A DNA stretch of 64,000 bases from Amphritea sp. Lineage in GTDB: Bacteria; Pseudomonadota; Gammaproteobacteria; Pseudomonadales; Balneatricaceae. Below, piece by piece: positions 39,190 through 52,952 of the stretch; positions within the stretch are counted from its first letter, which is position 1, and every line of letters starts with the position of its first letter. Location of the stretch: the NCBI RefSeq assembly GCF_050300915.1, contig NZ_JBNKYN010000017.1, forward strand, positions 312 to 64,311, written 5' to 3'. The translations under genes were made by a program, and so were the position numbers. The notes under the pieces are model-generated. The model was not told where the DNA came from and searched no databases. It worked only from the letters and a program-made list of their open reading frames with translations.

Positions 39190-39327
39190 GCGGCAACACC
39201 AGTGGACAAACCCCGACAACCTGCCGGGCAGAGATCATCTTTATGCAGAAAATGTTTGCCGCCCCATTTTTTCCAACTGAAGACCTGATTATACTACGCT
39301 TACATTTTTATCCTGGAACAACAGATC

Positions 39328-39894
39328 ATGCCAAAAGCTAGCGAAATAAAAAGAAATGCCGCCATCGAAATTAACGGCGAAGCCTATATTGTTAGGGATA
39401 TCGAGCGCTCGGTTCCTCAGGGGCGTGCCGGAGGCAGTCTCTATCGTATGCGGATGTACAATGTTGCCACCAATGCCAAGATAGATGAGACCTTTAAAGA
39501 TTCAGATATGCTGACGCTGGCTGATCTGAGCCGTCGCGCGGCCACCTTCTCTTACGCTGACGGCGATGAGTATGTCTTTATGGACAGTGAAGATTACACC
39601 TCCTACAGCATGAACAGATCAGCGATTGAAGATGAGTTGCTGTTCATTACCGAAGATCTGCAGGGGATGCATGTGATGGTACTGAACGATGTACCCGTGG
39701 CCCTGGACCTACCTGGCATTGTCGAGCTTGAAATCATCGAAACCGACCCATCAATTAAAGGTGGTTCTGCTACGGCCCGCACCAAGCCAGCGAAACTGTC
39801 TACCGGACTGGTAGTGCAGGTACCGGAACATATCTCCACCGGCGACCGCATCAAGGTTAATGTCGAAGAGCGTAAATTTACCGGCCGCGCCTGA
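39328..39894 (+). CDS. yeiP: Elongation factor P-like protein (EfpL/YeiP)
   Basis: EF-P fold ([12 protein letters not shown]); loop PQGRAGG has Arg rather than the PGKG Lys. Confidence 0.85.
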
Positions 39895-39911
39895 TCACAT
39901 AATGCATTAAT

Positions 39912-39941
39912 AAAAAACCGCCGAATCAGGCGGTTTTTTTC
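39912..39941 (+). terminator. Intrinsic terminator after yeiP
   Basis: AAAAAACCGCCGAATCAGGCGGTTTTTTT. Confidence 0.8.
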
Positions 39942-40045
39942 TATTGAGTAGCCCCCTGGATTTTACCTTTTCTGCAAATACAGCGTTGCACTTTCCTATA
40001 GGCCTTTCGATTGCAGAGGTGAGCAAAACAGCCTTAACAGGCTGG

Positions 40046-40072
40046 TTCTAGCAAGACTAGCAAGTTTCTAAC
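40046..40072 (-). repeat. Degenerate reverse arm of the CTAG repeat family
   Basis: TTCTAGCAAGACTAGCAAGTTTCTAAC; overlaps the stop codon of the 184-aa ORF. Confidence 0.5.
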
Positions 40073-40622
40073 TCCTTCCCAGTTTACGCCTGAGGCGCAT
40101 ACTGGGCCCAACCTGAGCTTCCGGGTGAGGTGTTTGCAAAATAACCAGCTCGCCATCGACAAAGTCCTGCTCCATCCCCAGCATAATCGCCGAAGCGTTA
40201 TCCAGATGCAGCACCAGCAACGCATCATAGTTCAGGGATTCTGAGGGAATATTCAGTTCTGCTGCGACAATGTCGATCAGTTCCCGCTGCTCATAGAGAT
40301 CAATAGAGGAGACCCTGGCAGCCGCAGGCAGACTGATCCAGCTGCACTGTTCAGGGCGTGGGACAACCGCGTCAACCTCCTTAACCACCAGACTGCCGAC
40401 AGTAAAACCATCGGCAAACGGGTGCCGCTCAACGCTCACCTCAATCCACTGTTCATCGCTCAACCGGAATCGCAACCAGCAGGCGCGGTTCATATCCTGC
40501 CCCAGACAGGTATGCAAGCCACCCGCCCAGATCTCATCCAGACGCAGATCCAGTAACTGGGAAAGAGTCTCCAGGGCATCTGTATCCAGATGGAATACTT
40601 TCAAACGAACCGTCTCAGGCAT
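40068..40622 (-). CDS. Hypothetical protein (184 aa), no family recognised
   Basis: Open ORF; minus strand has GGAG 7 nt before the ATG (GAAAGGAGACTCCCTATG); not overlapped by other credible genes. Confidence 0.7.
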   Translation of the reverse strand: MPETVRLKVFHLDTDALETLSQLLDLRLDEIWAGGLHTCLGQDMNRACWLRFRLSDEQWIEVSVERHPFADGFTVGSLVVKEVDAVVPRPEQCSWISLPAAARVSSIDLYEQRELIDIVAAELNIPSESLNYDALLVLHLDNASAIMLGMEQDFVDGELVILQTPHPEAQVGPSMRLRRKLGRS

Positions 40623-40650
40623 AGGGAGTCTCCTTTCAGTCGACAGACAA

Positions 40651-40695
40651 ACTTCGCCGCTGGCTAGTGGCTAGTGGCTAGTGGCTAGAAAAAGC
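40651..40695 (+). repeat. CTAG repeat family: (TGGCTAG)x4 heptamer run ending in GCTAGAAAAAGC
   Basis: ACTTCGCCGC-TGGCTAG TGGCTAG TGGCTAG TGGCTAG-AAAAAGC. Confidence 0.85.
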
Positions 40696-40785
40696 GTAAC
40701 ACAATCAGCAGTTTACTGTATCCGTTTTTTAAAGTTCCTGATCTTCCCAGCCACCAACAGGCAAAAAGCGCCGTCCGGTCTGGCT

Positions 40786-41565
40786 TCACCAAGATGCCCC
40801 CCTTTCAGCAATCATCTTTCGCACCATTGCATCGTAAAATTTGACTGCAAAGCCACTTTCCGAGATCAACTGCTGAGTCAAGCTCGCACACCGGGACTTA
40901 ACCTCATCCAAAAGCAGATTATCTTCGCCACCAAGAGCACCAGCAGCCAACTGAATTTCTGCCGCACGCTGTACCGTCCAGAGCAAGAAAAAGGTTCGCT
41001 CAATATCCGCTTCGCCTACCGCAACACCATGGTTTCGAAGCACTAAAATGTGCTTATCACCTAAGCTTTTGAGCATACGCTCCCGCTCTTCCCTGAATAA
41101 AGTAATACCCTCAAACTCATGGTAACCAACCCGGTTATATAGCTGCGCACCATAAAAATCATCATGCCCAAACCCCCTCACTTTCTGTGCTATGGCAGAA
41201 ACCTCATTGGTATGAGTATGCACTACACAGTGGATATCGCTACGCGCTCCGTGGATGGCGCTGTGCAGGGCAAAACCTGCCGGATTCGCGTCATATTCAG
41301 AAGGTTCAACCTTATTTCCTTCCAGGTCAACTTTAAGCAAATTTTGCGGCGAGACTTCTGTGTAGTTAAGACCAAAGGGATTAACTAAATAGCAGCCCTC
41401 CTCACCCGGAACACGAGCGGATATATGATTAAAGATGGTCTCTGTCCACCCAAAAAAATCTACCAAATGATAACAATATGCCAGCTTTACCCTTAGCTCC
41501 CATTCGCCAGCCGACATACCTTCCGGGCAAGCGAATCTGACATCCACATCATCAGTTTTATACAT
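40786..41565 (-). CDS. Class II aldolase/adducin family metalloprotein
   Basis: NHISARV, NPFG, LHSAIH, VVHTHT, LRNHG. Confidence 0.9.
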   Translation of the reverse strand: MYKTDDVDVRFACPEGMSAGEWELRVKLAYCYHLVDFFGWTETIFNHISARVPGEEGCYLVNPFGLNYTEVSPQNLLKVDLEGNKVEPSEYDANPAGFALHSAIHGARSDIHCVVHTHTNEVSAIAQKVRGFGHDDFYGAQLYNRVGYHEFEGITLFREERERMLKSLGDKHILVLRNHGVAVGEADIERTFFLLWTVQRAAEIQLAAGALGGEDNLLLDEVKSRCASLTQQLISESGFAVKFYDAMVRKMIAERGASW

Positions 41566-41588
41566 GGCATTACTTCCTAGATACAGAG

Positions 41589-42557
41589 TTAATCAGAAAA
41601 GCCGTTCCGGCCTGGAAAAGAAGGGGCAAGCTCTCGCGCATTGGGCATTTTCAGCCAGAGACGGACAAGCTTGCGGTATCGATCAGGCTCTTCATAATCC
41701 TCGAACCCGGTTCGAGAGTGAAGCACCATGTAATTGTTAGCAAACTGGATATCGCCCGGCTCCAGCATCATGTCGAGCTTAACCTCGTTGCGGTGCATGA
41801 TATCGTCAAACAGATCCATCGCTTCAATCTGCTTCTGACTCAAGGGCACGCCCTCAATATCGTGTCCAAGCTCAATATACTGGCGTAAGTAACGACAACT
41901 GAGCTTGCCTTTGTGATAACTGAAGATAGGCGACAACGTTGGTTTTTCATCACCCAGGTGAGCAAAATAAAACGGTTGATACAGCACATCCAGGAGGTCA
42001 GGCGCCTCATCCAGGATCGTATTATAGATAGTTGCCGCACTGACCAGGCTGCTCATCCCTCCCTCCCTGGCTTTTTTAATCGACAACAACCCTACCACAT
42101 CGGACAGGTCTGTGTGGTAAGGCAGATAGGCGTTGGTCTCATAAACCCGGGTATTCTTGTCGTTAAGATCACCGACATTGATCACCATACCGAGCAGGTC
42201 GCCTTTAGGATTCTGCTTCACAGCCTGGCCAAGATGTAAGCCCAGACCGTAATAGATAGACTGTAGCTCACTCTCATCATAGCGATCCGCATTTAGCCCT
42301 CTTATCAGGATAAACCCCCGCCCCTCTTCTAACTCATCCAGAATGCGCTCAATGCCTTCCTGCATTTCAGCAATGGGGAAGTCACTTTTTTCAAACATCG
42401 GCGCCTTAATGCCCTGATCATTCAGGTGCTTCAGCGCCAGATCAAGCACCTCCTGCTCCTTTTCTGAAAGCAAATAGACCCACGACAGGTTCGATTTAAG
42501 GCTATCCCCATCCCAGGCAGCTTGCCCATTAATTTTCTGCCCATAACGATTAATCAT
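41589..42557 (-). CDS. TauD/TfdA family Fe(II)/2-oxoglutarate dioxygenase (clavaminate-synthase-like)
   Basis: HTD facial-triad motif (YHTDLSD), distal His in NNYMVLHSRTGF, RKLVRLW. Confidence 0.88.
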   Translation of the reverse strand: MINRYGQKINGQAAWDGDSLKSNLSWVYLLSEKEQEVLDLALKHLNDQGIKAPMFEKSDFPIAEMQEGIERILDELEEGRGFILIRGLNADRYDESELQSIYYGLGLHLGQAVKQNPKGDLLGMVINVGDLNDKNTRVYETNAYLPYHTDLSDVVGLLSIKKAREGGMSSLVSAATIYNTILDEAPDLLDVLYQPFYFAHLGDEKPTLSPIFSYHKGKLSCRYLRQYIELGHDIEGVPLSQKQIEAMDLFDDIMHRNEVKLDMMLEPGDIQFANNYMVLHSRTGFEDYEEPDRYRKLVRLWLKMPNARELAPSFPGRNGFSD

Positions 42558-42712
42558 AAAATACTCCTTCAGTATTCAAAATGCGGCGCATGACGCTCCT
42601 ACATACCGGCTTGAGTCCATGTAACAAAAGCCCACACCGACCAAACAACATGGGCTGGCATTAACCTGCTCCCATTGGAAAGTGAGAACTGACAAGCGAA
42701 CCATAATTAAAT

Positions 42713-42870
42713 ATAGTTTCACATGCAACTATTTTAGAAATACCTGAGAGTAGAATATCGACCTAAAAAGCAAAAAAATAAGGCAGCATGTCGATAAAAC
42801 CCACAAAAACAAGAAGGATTGCAAATTTATGCAAAACACCTATGAAATTTTATGTTTCATATAAAACATA
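42713..42870. promoter_or_regulatory. Two related 20-bp palindromes, candidate MarR operators
   Basis: ATAGTTTCACATGCAACTAT (42713-42732, 8/10 pairs) and TATGTTTCATATAAAACATA (42851-42870, 9/10 pairs) share GTTTCA-N-AT-NN-AAC; both lie in the divergent promoter region. Confidence 0.6.
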
Positions 42871-43069
42871 AAAGCTCTACACATAGTCAAATAGACGATC
42901 AATTGAATAGTCAAAAGACGCATCAAGAATATCGGCACCTACAGCTGCCCGCATAAACCCGCTAAAAGGAAGCTGTTCACGCTTTACTTAAAACGAATAA
43001 TCTTTATCCTAACGACTTGTACTCAATTACTATTGAGTTAATTAAAAACCGACTCAAGTATCATCGTAG

Positions 43070-43594
43070 ATGAAAGATAAATACCAAAGCCCACTTGATC
43101 TGGAACAGATGTTAGCGGCAAAGCTGACTCGCATCAGCAGCACTCTGGATCATTTCAGCAATTATTATTATTCCGAAGTTTTCCCAGAAACAAACCTGAA
43201 CGATGCACGTTATCTGCTTATCTTAGGAGCAAGAAAAGAAGCCTCTGCTGTAGATATCGTCAAAGCAATGAATTTTGACAAAGCAACCGCCAGCAGAAAT
43301 ATAAAAAAACTTATAAATCAGGGACTTATAATAAGAAAGACCGACCCATCTGACGCTCGTCGCAACCCCCTGACCCTGAGTAAAAAAGGCCAGGCGATCT
43401 ATGATGAAATCAGTCAGTCGCTCAGATTAAGAAATGAAGCCGCTTTAGCCTCTCTATCACCCGGCGAAGTAACAATATTCTTTGAAATACTCGATAAGCT
43501 ACAAGCAAGTGCAAATAATCGATTACAAAAAATGAATAGCGACAAGCAAGATCCCGCCATCGATTACACCACCTCCACGATAATGCAGCCTTAA
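43070..43594 (+). CDS. MarR family transcriptional regulator
   Basis: wHTH with DKATASRNIKKL...DPSDARR...LSKKG. Confidence 0.9.
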   Translation: MKDKYQSPLDLEQMLAAKLTRISSTLDHFSNYYYSEVFPETNLNDARYLLILGARKEASAVDIVKAMNFDKATASRNIKKLINQGLIIRKTDPSDARRNPLTLSKKGQAIYDEISQSLRLRNEAALASLSPGEVTIFFEILDKLQASANNRLQKMNSDKQDPAIDYTTSTIMQP

Positions 43595-43646
43595 CAAGCC
43601 GTAGTTCGAAGTGCAATAATTCAACTTAACGTAACGCCCTATTACC

Positions 43647-43720
43647 GCTCTTTCTAGCCGTGAAAAGCCACCAGCAGGCGCGCAGCGCTGTTCTGACAAG
43701 CGACGAAATCGCGTCTAGCT
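43647..43720 (-). repeat. CTAG repeat family, reverse arm
   Basis: Minus strand reads GCTAG-ACGCGATTTCGTCGCTTG...GCGC-TGC-GCGC...GGCTAGAAAGAGC; starts in the ung stop codon. Confidence 0.75.
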
Positions 43721-44422
43721 GCTAATGTCCCCCGGGAGCTGCCAGTCAACCGGGCGACGACCATGAGCCGCAAGATACCCATTCGCCTGACTAAAATGTT
43801 TGCAGCCAAAGAAGCCGCGGTAAGCGGCCAGCGGCGAAGGGTGAGCAGATTTCAACACCAGATGACGCTGCGGATCGATGACGGCGCCTTTTTTCTGCGC
43901 ATAGCTACCCCACAGCAGAAAGACCACATGTTCACACTGTTCATTCACGGTAGCGATCACCCGGTCGGTAAACTGCTCCCAGCCCCGTCCCTGATGGGAG
44001 GCCGCCTGTGAATCCTCAACCGTGAGCACAGCATTCAGCAGCAACACCCCCTGCTTTGCCCAGCTTTCCAGATAACCATGATTTACCGGTGTAACGCCCA
44101 GATCACTTTGCAACTCTTTATAGATATTCACCAGCGAGGGGGGTGTTTTGATACCCGGACGTACCGAAAAACAGAGTCCATGGGCCTGATCCGGCTGATG
44201 GTAGGGGTCCTGCCCGATAATCACTACTTTCACCTCATCCAGAGGCGTTGCCTCCAGGGCATGAAACCAGTGACTTGAATGGGGATAGATAATTTTTTTA
44301 GCCGCTTTCTCCTGCTGTAAAAACTGTTTCAGCTGTTGCATATAGGGGGCATCAAACTCAGCATTTAACCAGGGTTGCCAGCTGGGGGCATTTTCCAGTG
44401 CCATCACACAATCCTCACTCAT
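43715..44422 (-). CDS. ung: Uracil-DNA glycosylase
   Basis: GQDPYH, HGLCFSV, GVLLLN, HPSPL. Confidence 0.97.
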
Positions 44423-44872
44423 TCAGTTATCACCACAGTCACGAATTTTTATATTAACCTGACCCTGCCATATTTCGCGAGTCAGGGTTTTACCATAGAT
44501 AACCGAGTAATAACGTACTTTACCCGGCGCATGGGAGATGACTCCAGAGATCAGGATGACCAGAATGTAGATCCAGGCCTGGGGCTGGGAAAACCAGTAA
44601 ATACCGGTCACCAACAATATCAATTTGAACAACACCAGCTGGCCACGCAACTGATACAGCCAGATAGCATCAACGTACAGCTCCTTTAGCACCATCAGTA
44701 TGCCGCTACCAACACCAACAATCAGGTAGGGCAACCAGACCGTCTGCGGCTGATGAAACAGATAGGCACCACCCAGCCCGGCAATTCCCACCAGATGTAA
44801 TGAGCGCAGTATAATGCTGATCCAGCGTTTACCGGGCAGATGGCGTTTCTGTTGCGGTATTAACCAGCTCAT
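44423..44872 (-). CDS. Conserved hypothetical inner membrane protein (about 4 TM)
   Basis: Hydrophobic helices, RSLHL and SHAPGKVRYYS motifs; start placed at ATG 44872. Confidence 0.72.
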   Translation of the reverse strand: MSWLIPQQKRHLPGKRWISIILRSLHLVGIAGLGGAYLFHQPQTVWLPYLIVGVGSGILMVLKELYVDAIWLYQLRGQLVLFKLILLVTGIYWFSQPQAWIYILVILISGVISHAPGKVRYYSVIYGKTLTREIWQGQVNIKIRDCGDN

Positions 44873-44974
44873 ACAGATATTCCTGAAGGCATATTCCTGA
44901 CGACAAATTCCTGAAGAAAAAAGGGCCACCCGTGGGCAGCCCTTATAGATTAACCGGTTCGGTTCAAAGACGCA

Positions 44975-46477
44975 TCAGCCGCGGGGACGCATCGCCGGGA
45001 ACAGGATAACATCACGAATCGATGCAGAGTCGGTGAACAACATCACCAGGCGGTCGATACCGATACCTTCACCTGCGGTTGGCGGCAAACCATATTCCAG
45101 GGCGTTGATGTAGTCGGCATCGTAGTGCATCGCTTCATCATCACCGGCATCTTTTTCAGCCACCTGTGCCTGGAAACGTTCCGCCTGATCTTCAGAGTCA
45201 TTCAACTCGGAGAAACCATTGGCCAGCTCGCGGCCAGCAACAAAGAACTCAAAGCGATCGGTCACAAACGGATTGGCATCGCTACGACGAGCCAGCGGTG
45301 ATACCTCAGTCGGATACTCAGTGATAAAGGTTGGTTGCTGCAGACGGTGCTCAACGGTCATTTCGAAAATCTCGATCTGCACCTTACCCAAGCCCCAGCT
45401 GTCCTTCACATCGATATCCATACGCTCAGCAATCTGCCGGGCAGCATGGTCATCCGCCAGGGCTTCTGCGGTGATATCCGGGTTATAGTGGAGGATAGAA
45501 TCAAATACGCTGAGACGGGTAAACGGCTTCTCAAGATCGTATTCAAAGGTTTCCAGAATCTCGCCATCTTCGTTGCGCACAGTGTTGACGATGGTCGTGG
45601 TGCCCAGTACGTTCTGCGCCACGGTGCGCAGCATCTCTTCGGTCAGGTCCATCAGATCATGGTAGTCCGCATACGCCTGATAGAACTCAATCATAGTGAA
45701 TTCAGGGTTGTGACGGGTCGACAGACCTTCGTTACGGAAGTTACGGTTGATCTCAAACACCCGCTCAAAACCACCGACAACCAAACGCTTCAGATACAGC
45801 TCCGGCGCGATCCGCAAAAACATATCCCGGTCCAGCGCATTGTGATGGGTAATAAACGGACGTGCACTCGCACCGCCAGGAATCACTTGCAGCATCGGCG
45901 TTTCCGCTTCGATAAAACGTTTTTCCGTGAGGAAGTTACGAATACCGGCTACGATTTTCGAGCGGGTTTCAAATACTTTGCGTGAGTGTTCGTTGGTAAT
46001 CAGATCAACATAGCGCTGACGATAGCGCATCTCAGTATCCTGCAGACCTTTGTGCTTATCCGGCAGTGGCCGCAGGTTTTTAGTCAGCAACTGATACTCA
46101 CCCAGGTCAACGTACAGGTCGCCTTTACCCGACTTATGCAGCACACCGGTCACACCGATGATATCACCCAGATCGAGCGACTTGGCAAACGCGCGTGCTT
46201 CTTTATTGACATAAAACTGAATCCGCCCGGTCATATCCTGCAGTACACCAAAGGCACCACGGTTGAGCATCACCCGGCCCGCAATACTGACGGTAATGCC
46301 CTCTTCCGCAATCTCCTCCTTCGATTTATTGCCATGCTGATCCTGCAGATCCTGAGCATAACTGTCACGACGGAAAGTGTTTGGGAAAGCGTTACCCGCT
46401 TCGCGCAGCGTGTTGAGTTTTTCACGACGCTCCGCAATCAGGCGGTTTTCATCTTGCGGCTGAATAGTTTCAGACAT
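44975..46477 (-). CDS. lysS: Lysine--tRNA ligase (class II)
   Basis: [39 protein letters not shown]. Confidence 0.98.
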
Positions 46478-52606: not shown

Positions 52607-52651
52607 AGTAAGAACGCTTTTCGGGGTTAACTGGATGTTAAATATAAAGTT

Positions 52652-52952
52652 GCTAGAACGGAAGCTTCGCTTCCTGCTAGTAGTTAGACGCAACTGCGTT
52701 GCTTGCTAGAAAAAGCAAAGATTAAGAGCAATAGCACGGAGTGGCTTTAATCTTTTTCCAGCAAGCGCAGCGTTCTAACCACTAGCAAGTCACGCAGTGA
52801 CGTCTAGAACGGAAGCTTCGCTTCCTGCTAGTAGTTGCGTTGCTCGCTAGAAAAAGCAAAGATTAAGAGCAATAGCACGGAGTGGCTTTGATCTTTTTCT
52901 AGCAAGCGCAGCGTTCTAACCACTAGCAAGTCACGCAGTGACGTCTAGCTAG
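52652..52952. repeat. Two tandem copies (151 and 141 bp) of the complete CTAG-hairpin element
   Basis: Units begin CTAGAACGGAAGCTTCGCTTCCTGCTAG at 52653 and 52804; both carry the same core AAAAAGCAAAGATTAAGAGCAATAGCACGGAGTGGCTTT. Confidence 0.92.

Follow-up and report, generated by a model that had tools for sequence, protein, structure and literature searches.

The window analyzed here, a stretch of 64,000 nucleotides from a draft genome of Amphritea sp. (positions 312 to 64,311 of contig NZ_JBNKYN010000017.1, assembly GCF_050300915.1), contains a block of about 3 kb that encodes a class II aldolase, a TauD-family dioxygenase, and a MarR-family regulator and lies between two short repeat arms that face each other. 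We consider it likely that this block is a lineage-specific islet that was inserted beside a resident repeat of a kind resembling repetitive extragenic palindromic (REP) sequences and bacterial interspersed mosaic elements (BIMEs). A preliminary description of the same DNA had suggested that the arms might act as terminal inverted repeats that capture or mobilize accessory genes or, as a weaker alternative, that two element copies mark the ends of an insertion. The weaker alternative is broadly right in that element copies delimit the indel represented by the block, though the flanks turn out to be a complete element on one side and a direct copy of one of its halves on the other. More generally, these repeats seem to be a host family tied to gene ends, and imported genes that come to lie beside a resident copy can mislead a reading of inverted repeats by eye. 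The overall case is fairly ordinary and will hardly surprise specialists of bacterial repeats. What is gained is the anatomy of a REP-like family that spans Amphritea and is apparently undescribed, a rule for the orientation of its members, and a small metabolic islet, composed of a dioxygenase and an aldolase under putative MarR control, that is common to several genera and seems to be exchanged between Amphritea species.

The evidence comes primarily from the orthologous spacer in related bacteria, for which we searched 40 related genomes with positions 39300–44950 of the window. In seven of them (G022, G005, G008, G016, G021, G019, and G023), a conserved open reading frame of 184 amino acids (ORF184) directly adjoins the uracil-DNA glycosylase gene ung, and the three genes of the block are absent. 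We read the spacers of six of these seven empty-site relatives, leaving out G019: those of G022, G005, G008, G016, and G021 contain one complete element with both arms, while the 48-nt spacer of G023 has no element. The order at the empty sites is heptamers or hairpins, the left arm GCTAGAAAAAGC, a conserved core that starts from GTAACACAATCAGCAGTTTACT, and a right arm such as CTTGATCTTTCTAGCC, which is followed by the same two modules that precede ung in our genome (G000, a draft assembly of 4.57 Mb in 275 contigs with 50.8% GC). Because five empty sites retain both arms together with their modules, the arms did not travel with the block. The expectation of the preliminary description that the block would be missing in relatives with breakpoints at the arms therefore held only in part: the block is absent from most Amphritea, with indel boundaries that lie within an element copy or next to one, but the empty sites keep both arms.

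Filled sites exist at four loci, i.e., in G000, in the complete Amphritea metagenome-assembled genome G017, in G013, and on the 1.9-kb metagenome contig L037, whose aldolase is 93% identical to that of G000. These carriers are the relatives closest to G000: over 35 kb of flanking DNA, the identity to G000 is 83–89% for G013 and 81–86% for G017, compared to 78–86% for G022, G005, and G008. About 20 other congeners, including the deep-branching G001, G002, G004, and G018, have no TauD or MarR orthologue at the locus, and the simplest reading of this distribution is a single gain in a small subclade. The aldolase gene has been deleted in G017 and G013 with endpoints that look alike, and roughly 60–130 nt of its 5' end remain in both, which means that the original block contained all three genes. 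The block thus qualifies as an islet both by its presence or absence between conserved flanks and by a tract of sequence identity that departs from the genomic background (see below).

At the filled site of G000, the side of ORF184 is occupied by the resident element. Its outer left modules (40651–40683, plus strand) consist of a truncated hairpin remnant, CTTCGCCGC, and three GGCTAGT heptamers (40662–40682), and are followed by the left arm GCTAGAAAAAGC (40684–40695, plus strand), which has the same position in the empty-site relatives. Next comes a locus-specific core beginning with GTAACACAATCAGCAGTTTACTGTATCCG (40696–40737, plus strand), the first 22 nt of which are conserved across species in the alignment of filled and empty sites. 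About 45 nt from the left arm, the element then has a nearer, decayed partner arm that the preliminary description had overlooked (40738–40752, plus strand): this sequence, CTGATCTTCCCAGCC, corresponds to the family consensus TTGATCTTTTTCTAGC and aligns with the right arm in G021, G016, G014, and L037. It leads into a decayed R1 hairpin module (40753–40784, plus strand) in which the CTAGs are mutated to CCAA or CTGG and which constitutes the inner direct repeat; the aldolase stop codon (40786–40788) follows almost directly. Since the inner right arm and its module have decayed, the segment 40645–40795 no longer folds as a palindrome (z +0.22), and the decay of the near partner is also why the left arm had been paired with the distal arm.

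On the other side of the block, in front of ung, there is a half-element composed of the right arm GCTCTTTCTAGC (43647–43658, plus strand), i.e., the outer direct repeat that is missing in G013, and, outward of this arm, the intact hairpin modules R1, CAGGCGCGCAGCGCTGTTCTGAC (43675–43697, plus strand), and R2, AAGCGACGAAATCGCGTCTAGC (43698–43719, plus strand). The final CTAG of this right-hand array provides the stop codon TAG of ung (43715–43717), and this arrangement is kept in the relatives that were read. The sequence of the two arms reads as originally reported, with an 11/12 inverted match between GCTAGAAAAAGC and GCTCTTTCTAGC and with hairpin or heptamer modules on the outer side of both.

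The comparison of filled and empty sites gives this match a different meaning. In G000, G017, and L037, the DNA between ORF184 and the aldolase gene aligns end to end with the whole empty-site element, and the left copy has a right arm of its own as well as the first right-hand module or more; among the inner modules, G017 retains decayed R1 and R2, and L037 retains R1. The left copy of G013 ends within the core, and the TauD and MarR genes are present there with both the right-hand element and the inner right arm absent. Compared to the right half of the empty-site element, the ung-side copy (43647–43719) is 83–91% identical, while the inner copy is 65–87% identical and has lost its CTAGs (the value of 87% being that of G017 vs G021). 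What brackets the block is therefore a pair of direct repeats of about 45–75 bp, each with the right arm and one or two modules, and this arrangement can be read at both ends in two carriers, G000 and G017. The 11/12 inverted match is that of the resident left arm with the right arm of the duplicated half.

Arms and modules of this kind belong to a repeat family with many members. In the window, the arm 12-mer occurs 12 times with up to one mismatch where 0.37 occurrences would be expected, so it is a real repeat motif, and nine element loci are found within the 68-kb contig. The tetranucleotide CTAG is ~8-fold depleted genome-wide (2148 observed vs 17,841 expected) and nonetheless concentrated in about 80 intergenic clusters, and the family amounts to about 78 loci in G000. 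Its unit is an array of mini-hairpins with stems of 5–6 bp and 3-nt loops (TGC, GCA, TTC, or GAA), each bounded by CTAG or a near variant, and the array terminates in an A-rich arm, GCTAGAAAAAG. We counted 122 perfect mini-hairpins with 25 different stem types, which shows that stem complementarity is kept while the sequence varies. Two facing arrays around a short core form a palindrome of about 150 bp, and such full elements, with units inverted around a short linker, are located at 52.7, 57.4, and 58.1 kb. The short core that had been described between the copies of both motifs at 52.7 kb can be seen, and the unit at 52647–52803 folds as a single long palindrome (z −4.95). At 52.65–52.95 kb, two units form a tandem duplicate within the family. 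Among the genomes searched, the family appears to be confined to Amphritea, and a literature search found no description of Amphritea repeats; we regard it as a genus-wide, REP/BIME-like, and apparently undescribed family. The number of GGCTAGT heptamers at the orthologous site varies between genomes (three in G000, 11 in G022, nine in G005, and five in G021), and G010 and G007 have long GGCTAGT runs elsewhere in their genomes.

Most copies with a recognizable arm are half-elements, with 43 loci that have one arm and eight that have both. In 37 of the 43 half-elements, no more than 200 nt separate the hairpin side from the 3' end of a neighboring gene, while a test of which gene the arm faces gave no bias (14 vs 12). 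Past the arm, a terminator-like hairpin with a T-run occurs within 110 nt in 22 of 48 half-elements, compared to 41 of 500 random segments (8%). The usual order is thus stop codon, hairpin array, arm, and often then an intrinsic terminator. Judged by this arrangement, the family unit most likely represents a transcribed 3'-end or intercistronic structure rather than the end of a transposon. Since the arm points away from the gene that precedes it, inward-facing arms will flank any DNA that lies between two gene ends.

The sequence of events that we envisage would begin with one complete palindromic element resident in the ung-ORF184 spacer of the genus. The three-gene module would then have been inserted into this spacer in the small subclade of G000, G017, G013, and L037, and it is now found between a complete, decaying element on the side of ORF184 and an intact second right half on the side of ung. 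Recombination within the repeat may have created or accompanied this insertion, either through a single crossover with incoming DNA that carried a copy of the repeat or through entry of the module into a tandem duplicate of the kind seen at 52.7 kb. These two routes are indistinguishable at this locus, and a Campbell-type origin could not be established. Later on, parts of the block were swapped between species by homologous recombination, and the aldolase was lost in two of them.

For this later exchange, the sliding identity between G000 and G017 is informative. Positions 41881–43680 are mostly 95–100% identical, with a dip to 88–91% at 42631–42930, against a background of 81–86%, while identity is 87–91% in the initial 300 bp at the TauD 3' end and 84–89% in ung. 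We see this tract as evidence of a recent homologous exchange between species. Its left edge falls inside the TauD gene, and the event was therefore an allelic replacement between genomes that already carried the block and not its first arrival; its right edge is the ung-side repeat. A second tract at 44281–45030 with 97–99% identity to G017, in a region that is otherwise 84–92% identical, indicates that short homologous exchanges are frequent among these Amphritea species.

Several observations weigh against an islet that came to lie beside a passive resident repeat. Judged on sequence only, it is the distal arm with its 11/12 match that pairs best with the left arm as an inverted repeat, while the near arm, owing to its decay, agrees with the perfect complement at only 8/12 positions. 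A member of the family could also have colonized the 3' end of the aldolase gene independently, and the two copies would then share their R1 type by chance with a probability of about 0.2. To the left of the right arm there is a faint ACGTAAC...CGCTCTTTC similarity that is too short to weigh; it could be a part of the core kept by the right copy, which would fit the split of one element better. In addition, the orientation rule rests on crude gene calls (longest open reading frames), and the variable gene content at the arms of other pairs described below means that the elements may be more active than bystanders.

Independent acquisition of the two copies can also be taken further, with the aldolase and ung genes each having received a half-element on their own and the insertion being unrelated to the repeat, a coincidence that we regard as unlikely. 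It would be helped by the density of elements on this contig and the 3'-end rule, by the fact that ung and the aldolase gene are both on the minus strand with a right-type half after them as this rule predicts, and by the general tolerance of neutral spacers between gene ends for insertions. However, the inner copy runs on from the locus-specific core without a break, and it can be aligned to the right half of the orthologous element as described above. Moreover, both the inner and the outer copy have the minority R1 type with a GGCGC stem (six of 28 such modules in the genome), and in G017 they have a GTG(T/A)AAGCCACCA insert in common that occurs at none of the empty sites. These features point to a local duplication over an unrelated copy.

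A more active role of the elements was considered in view of three further inward-facing arm pairs (C22, C16, and C40) that we examined with no matched control. At C22, the arms follow the convergent genes for a hexapeptide transferase (plus strand) and a Lon-like protease (minus strand) and persist across species. The arms are 165 nt apart in G003, some 480 nt apart in G014, and some 900 nt apart in G010, where an open reading frame lies between them; in G000, the interval reaches 3 kb and encodes a Gp49/HigB-like toxin besides unknown genes. The orthologous locus of G017 has about 13 kb, measured between the flanking genes rather than between the arms. At C16, synteny breaks at both arms, while at C40 a 4-kb variable segment begins exactly at the left arm and does not end at the right arm. 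Together with the pair enclosing the aldolase block (C17), all four pairs thus show gene content that varies from an arm, and the whole interval is variable in C17, C22, and C16. Among the closest relatives, gene content does not vary in this way at the elements of 52.7 and 57–58 kb. The coincidence of repeats with slots of variable content hints at a lead and is not a result, given that spacers between gene ends tolerate insertions anyway. We give little credence to the idea that the elements are preferred recombination sites with repeated gain, duplication, and loss of accessory DNA, i.e., a gene-capture slot without a dedicated integrase. An Rfam scan of two other arm-bounded regions returned no match.

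Just inside the right arm of both the C22 and the C40 pair lies a copy of a separate dispersed repeat of about 220–370 bp, which has no Rfam match and is found in several copies with 72–86% identity in most Amphritea genomes searched. In G000, its copies are located at C22 (L030 4699–4919), C40:26631-26861, C77:716-942, C2:6739-6981, and C81:19834-20027.

It is very unlikely that the block is ancestral and was lost in most species by recombination between the direct right-half copies, leaving one complete element behind. The direct-repeat architecture does predict precisely the empty site that is observed, and repeats of 45–75 bp suffice for RecA-dependent deletion. On the other hand, carriers are limited to G000 and its three closest relatives, and the absence of TauD or MarR orthologues from the locus in about 20 other congeners extends to deep-branching ones. 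The low GC content of marR and the promoter part as well as the unrelated contexts of the nearest homologues outside Amphritea also speak against an ancestral block. Secondary losses via the direct repeats may have occurred inside the carrier clade.

The weakest explanation is that the arms are the terminal inverted repeats of a composite or MITE-like mobile unit (MITEs are miniature transposable elements with inverted repeats) that picked up the three genes and is able to relocate them; despite the 11/12 inverted match with mirror-image hairpin modules outside, the bounding of the indel by element copies, the species-variable gene content from an arm at the three other pairs, and a 7 to 1 excess of inward-facing over outward-facing pairs among neighboring half-elements, it is largely refuted by the empty sites, where both arms stay put and are thus resident rather than imported, and we see next to no chance for it. 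The left arm has a partner of its own, G013 has genes of the block without the right arm, and the 3'-end rule accounts for the excess of inward-facing pairs. G000 has one copy of the block, all four carriers have it at the same locus, a profile search found no transposase or recombinase among its genes, and no target-site duplication was found, with outer borders (the ORF184 leader and the ung stop) that are identical in filled and empty sites.

Three specific candidates for mobility were also set aside. G000 encodes two PF01797 Y1-transposase genes that resemble REP-associated tyrosine transposases (RAYTs; C15:7283-7942 and C6:73202-74071), and a mobilizing role of these genes was rejected because the flanks of both are free of these hairpins, an absence that is not final in a draft of 275 contigs. 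An integron had been prompted by co-oriented element copies on C68, where the array is one of co-directional genes that each have a terminator and a half-element; no integron integrase was found, with a best match of 101 bits to the integron integrase profile TIGR02249 (cut-off 265) and none near element clusters. Finally, a 1.3-kb insert of G014 in the same spacer, considered as a second cargo, is an insertion sequence (IS) of the IS481 family inserted in a CTAG.

The C68 region itself (C68:5500-24332 of G000) consists of small accessory genes in groups separated by a near-identical terminator hairpin and a right-type half-element. It encodes a defense-type AAA ATPase, a Gp49/HigB-like toxin pair, a LysR regulator, an NYN-domain protein, a DoxX/epimerase, and a MarR regulator, and a FAD oxidoreductase that is split into two overlapping open reading frames and probably frameshifted.

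How do these repeats compare with known systems? They are like REP/BIME elements in being short, GC-rich extragenic hairpins of about a hundred copies that form mosaic inverted arrays after genes or between cistrons. Unlike REP/BIME elements, the Amphritea repeats have stems of 5–6 bp with 3-nt loops, CTAG boundaries, and an A-rich arm, and no cognate RAYT lies beside them. REP/BIME elements are described as preferred IS targets (PMC1525189 and PMC3333891). The Amphritea element is likewise hit by an IS, namely the IS481-family element of G014 (L006, G014:C1:376252-380533), which encodes a 309-amino-acid transposase with LZ_Tnp_IS481 and rve domains, has inverted ends starting with TGTAGATTTCA, and sits in a CTAG within the orthologous right arm, between two occurrences of TCTAGC. 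IS481 targets NCTAGN, and the CTAG-rich repeats may be preferred targets of this IS. In G012 (L041), a fragment with the same IS end adjoins a CTAG at the position orthologous to C22.

The organization of two inverted units with a short spacer that fold as one long hairpin recalls the REPINs (REP doublets forming hairpins) of Pseudomonas fluorescens (PMC3116915). REPINs are presumed to be mobilized as doublets by a RAYT. In contrast, most Amphritea loci with a recognizable arm are single halves at gene 3' ends, and no associated RAYT was found. MITE- or IS-bracketed composites are exemplified by the resistance integrons between two MITE copies in Acinetobacter. The Amphritea block is similar in that a small non-coding repeat occurs twice, on either side of a few accessory genes. 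In MITE/IS composites, however, empty sites are free of the bracketing copies, and the unit as a whole has a target duplication at its flanks, whereas in Amphritea the empty site already contains the repeat, the block is bracketed by a complete element and a partial copy in direct orientation, and no duplication exists outside of them. Integron cassettes with their attC sites share imperfect palindromes at boundaries and, on C68, co-oriented copies between small accessory genes, but no integrase scored above the cut-off, the arrays follow gene orientation and include terminators, and the aldolase block has no recombinase.

The genes of the block were recognized as described before, and profile matches and GC content agree with three genes and an AT-rich spacer between the arms. 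The aldolase gene (40786–41565, minus strand) belongs to the class II aldolase/adducin family (Pfam PF00596, 1.6e-40; NF005451) and is accompanied by the gene of the TauD-family Fe(II)/2-oxoglutarate dioxygenase (41589–42557, minus strand; PF02668, 4.9e-34). A spacer of 512 bp (42558–43069) with a GC content of 36–37% and values of up to 44%, compared to 50.8% for the genome, separates this operon from the divergent gene of the MarR-family regulator (43070–43594, plus strand; PF12802 and PF01047; 99% nucleotide identity to G017) and presumably houses the promoters and the operator. A promoter and terminator scan of the block gave nothing above chance, with one promoter-like site on the plus strand at 42689–42717.

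Relatives of the block in other genera have 55–85% protein identity. Marinobacterium marinum (protein identities of 77% and 82%) and Bisbaumannia pacifica both have the TauD and aldolase genes side by side, and the full trio with MarR was found in two metagenomic contexts, one with TRAP-transporter and Rieske-oxygenase genes and one with a LysE gene, neither of which shows CTAG clustering. Given that the trio occurs elsewhere without the repeats, it is the genes that were imported, and the repeats are the host's own. The nearest solved structure to the dioxygenase is FrbJ (5EQN, 1.3e-53), the hydroxylase of a small phosphonate, and the protein is weakly similar to gamma-butyrobetaine and trimethyllysine dioxygenases. 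From the combination of a predicted hydroxylase with an aldolase, putatively controlled by a divergent MarR repressor, we surmise that a small polar compound is first hydroxylated and then cleaved.

The block is framed by conserved genes on both sides. ung (43715–44422, minus strand; NF003589, 2e-108) is the right conserved flank of the indel. ORF184 (40068–40622, minus strand) is its left conserved flank, stands beside the element in the seven relatives whose fetched loci reach it, and had no family match in Pfam and NCBIfam profile searches; the EfpL/YeiP gene is located further to the left. ORF184 is found on the opposite strand relative to ung in three genomes (G011:C19:312190-314065, G010:C2:160799-164586, and G003:C1:3511667-3513663), which makes the ung-ORF184 spacer an inversion breakpoint in the genus as well. 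The distance between efpL and ORF184 differs too, from about 140 bp in G000 to about 875 bp in G017 (C2).

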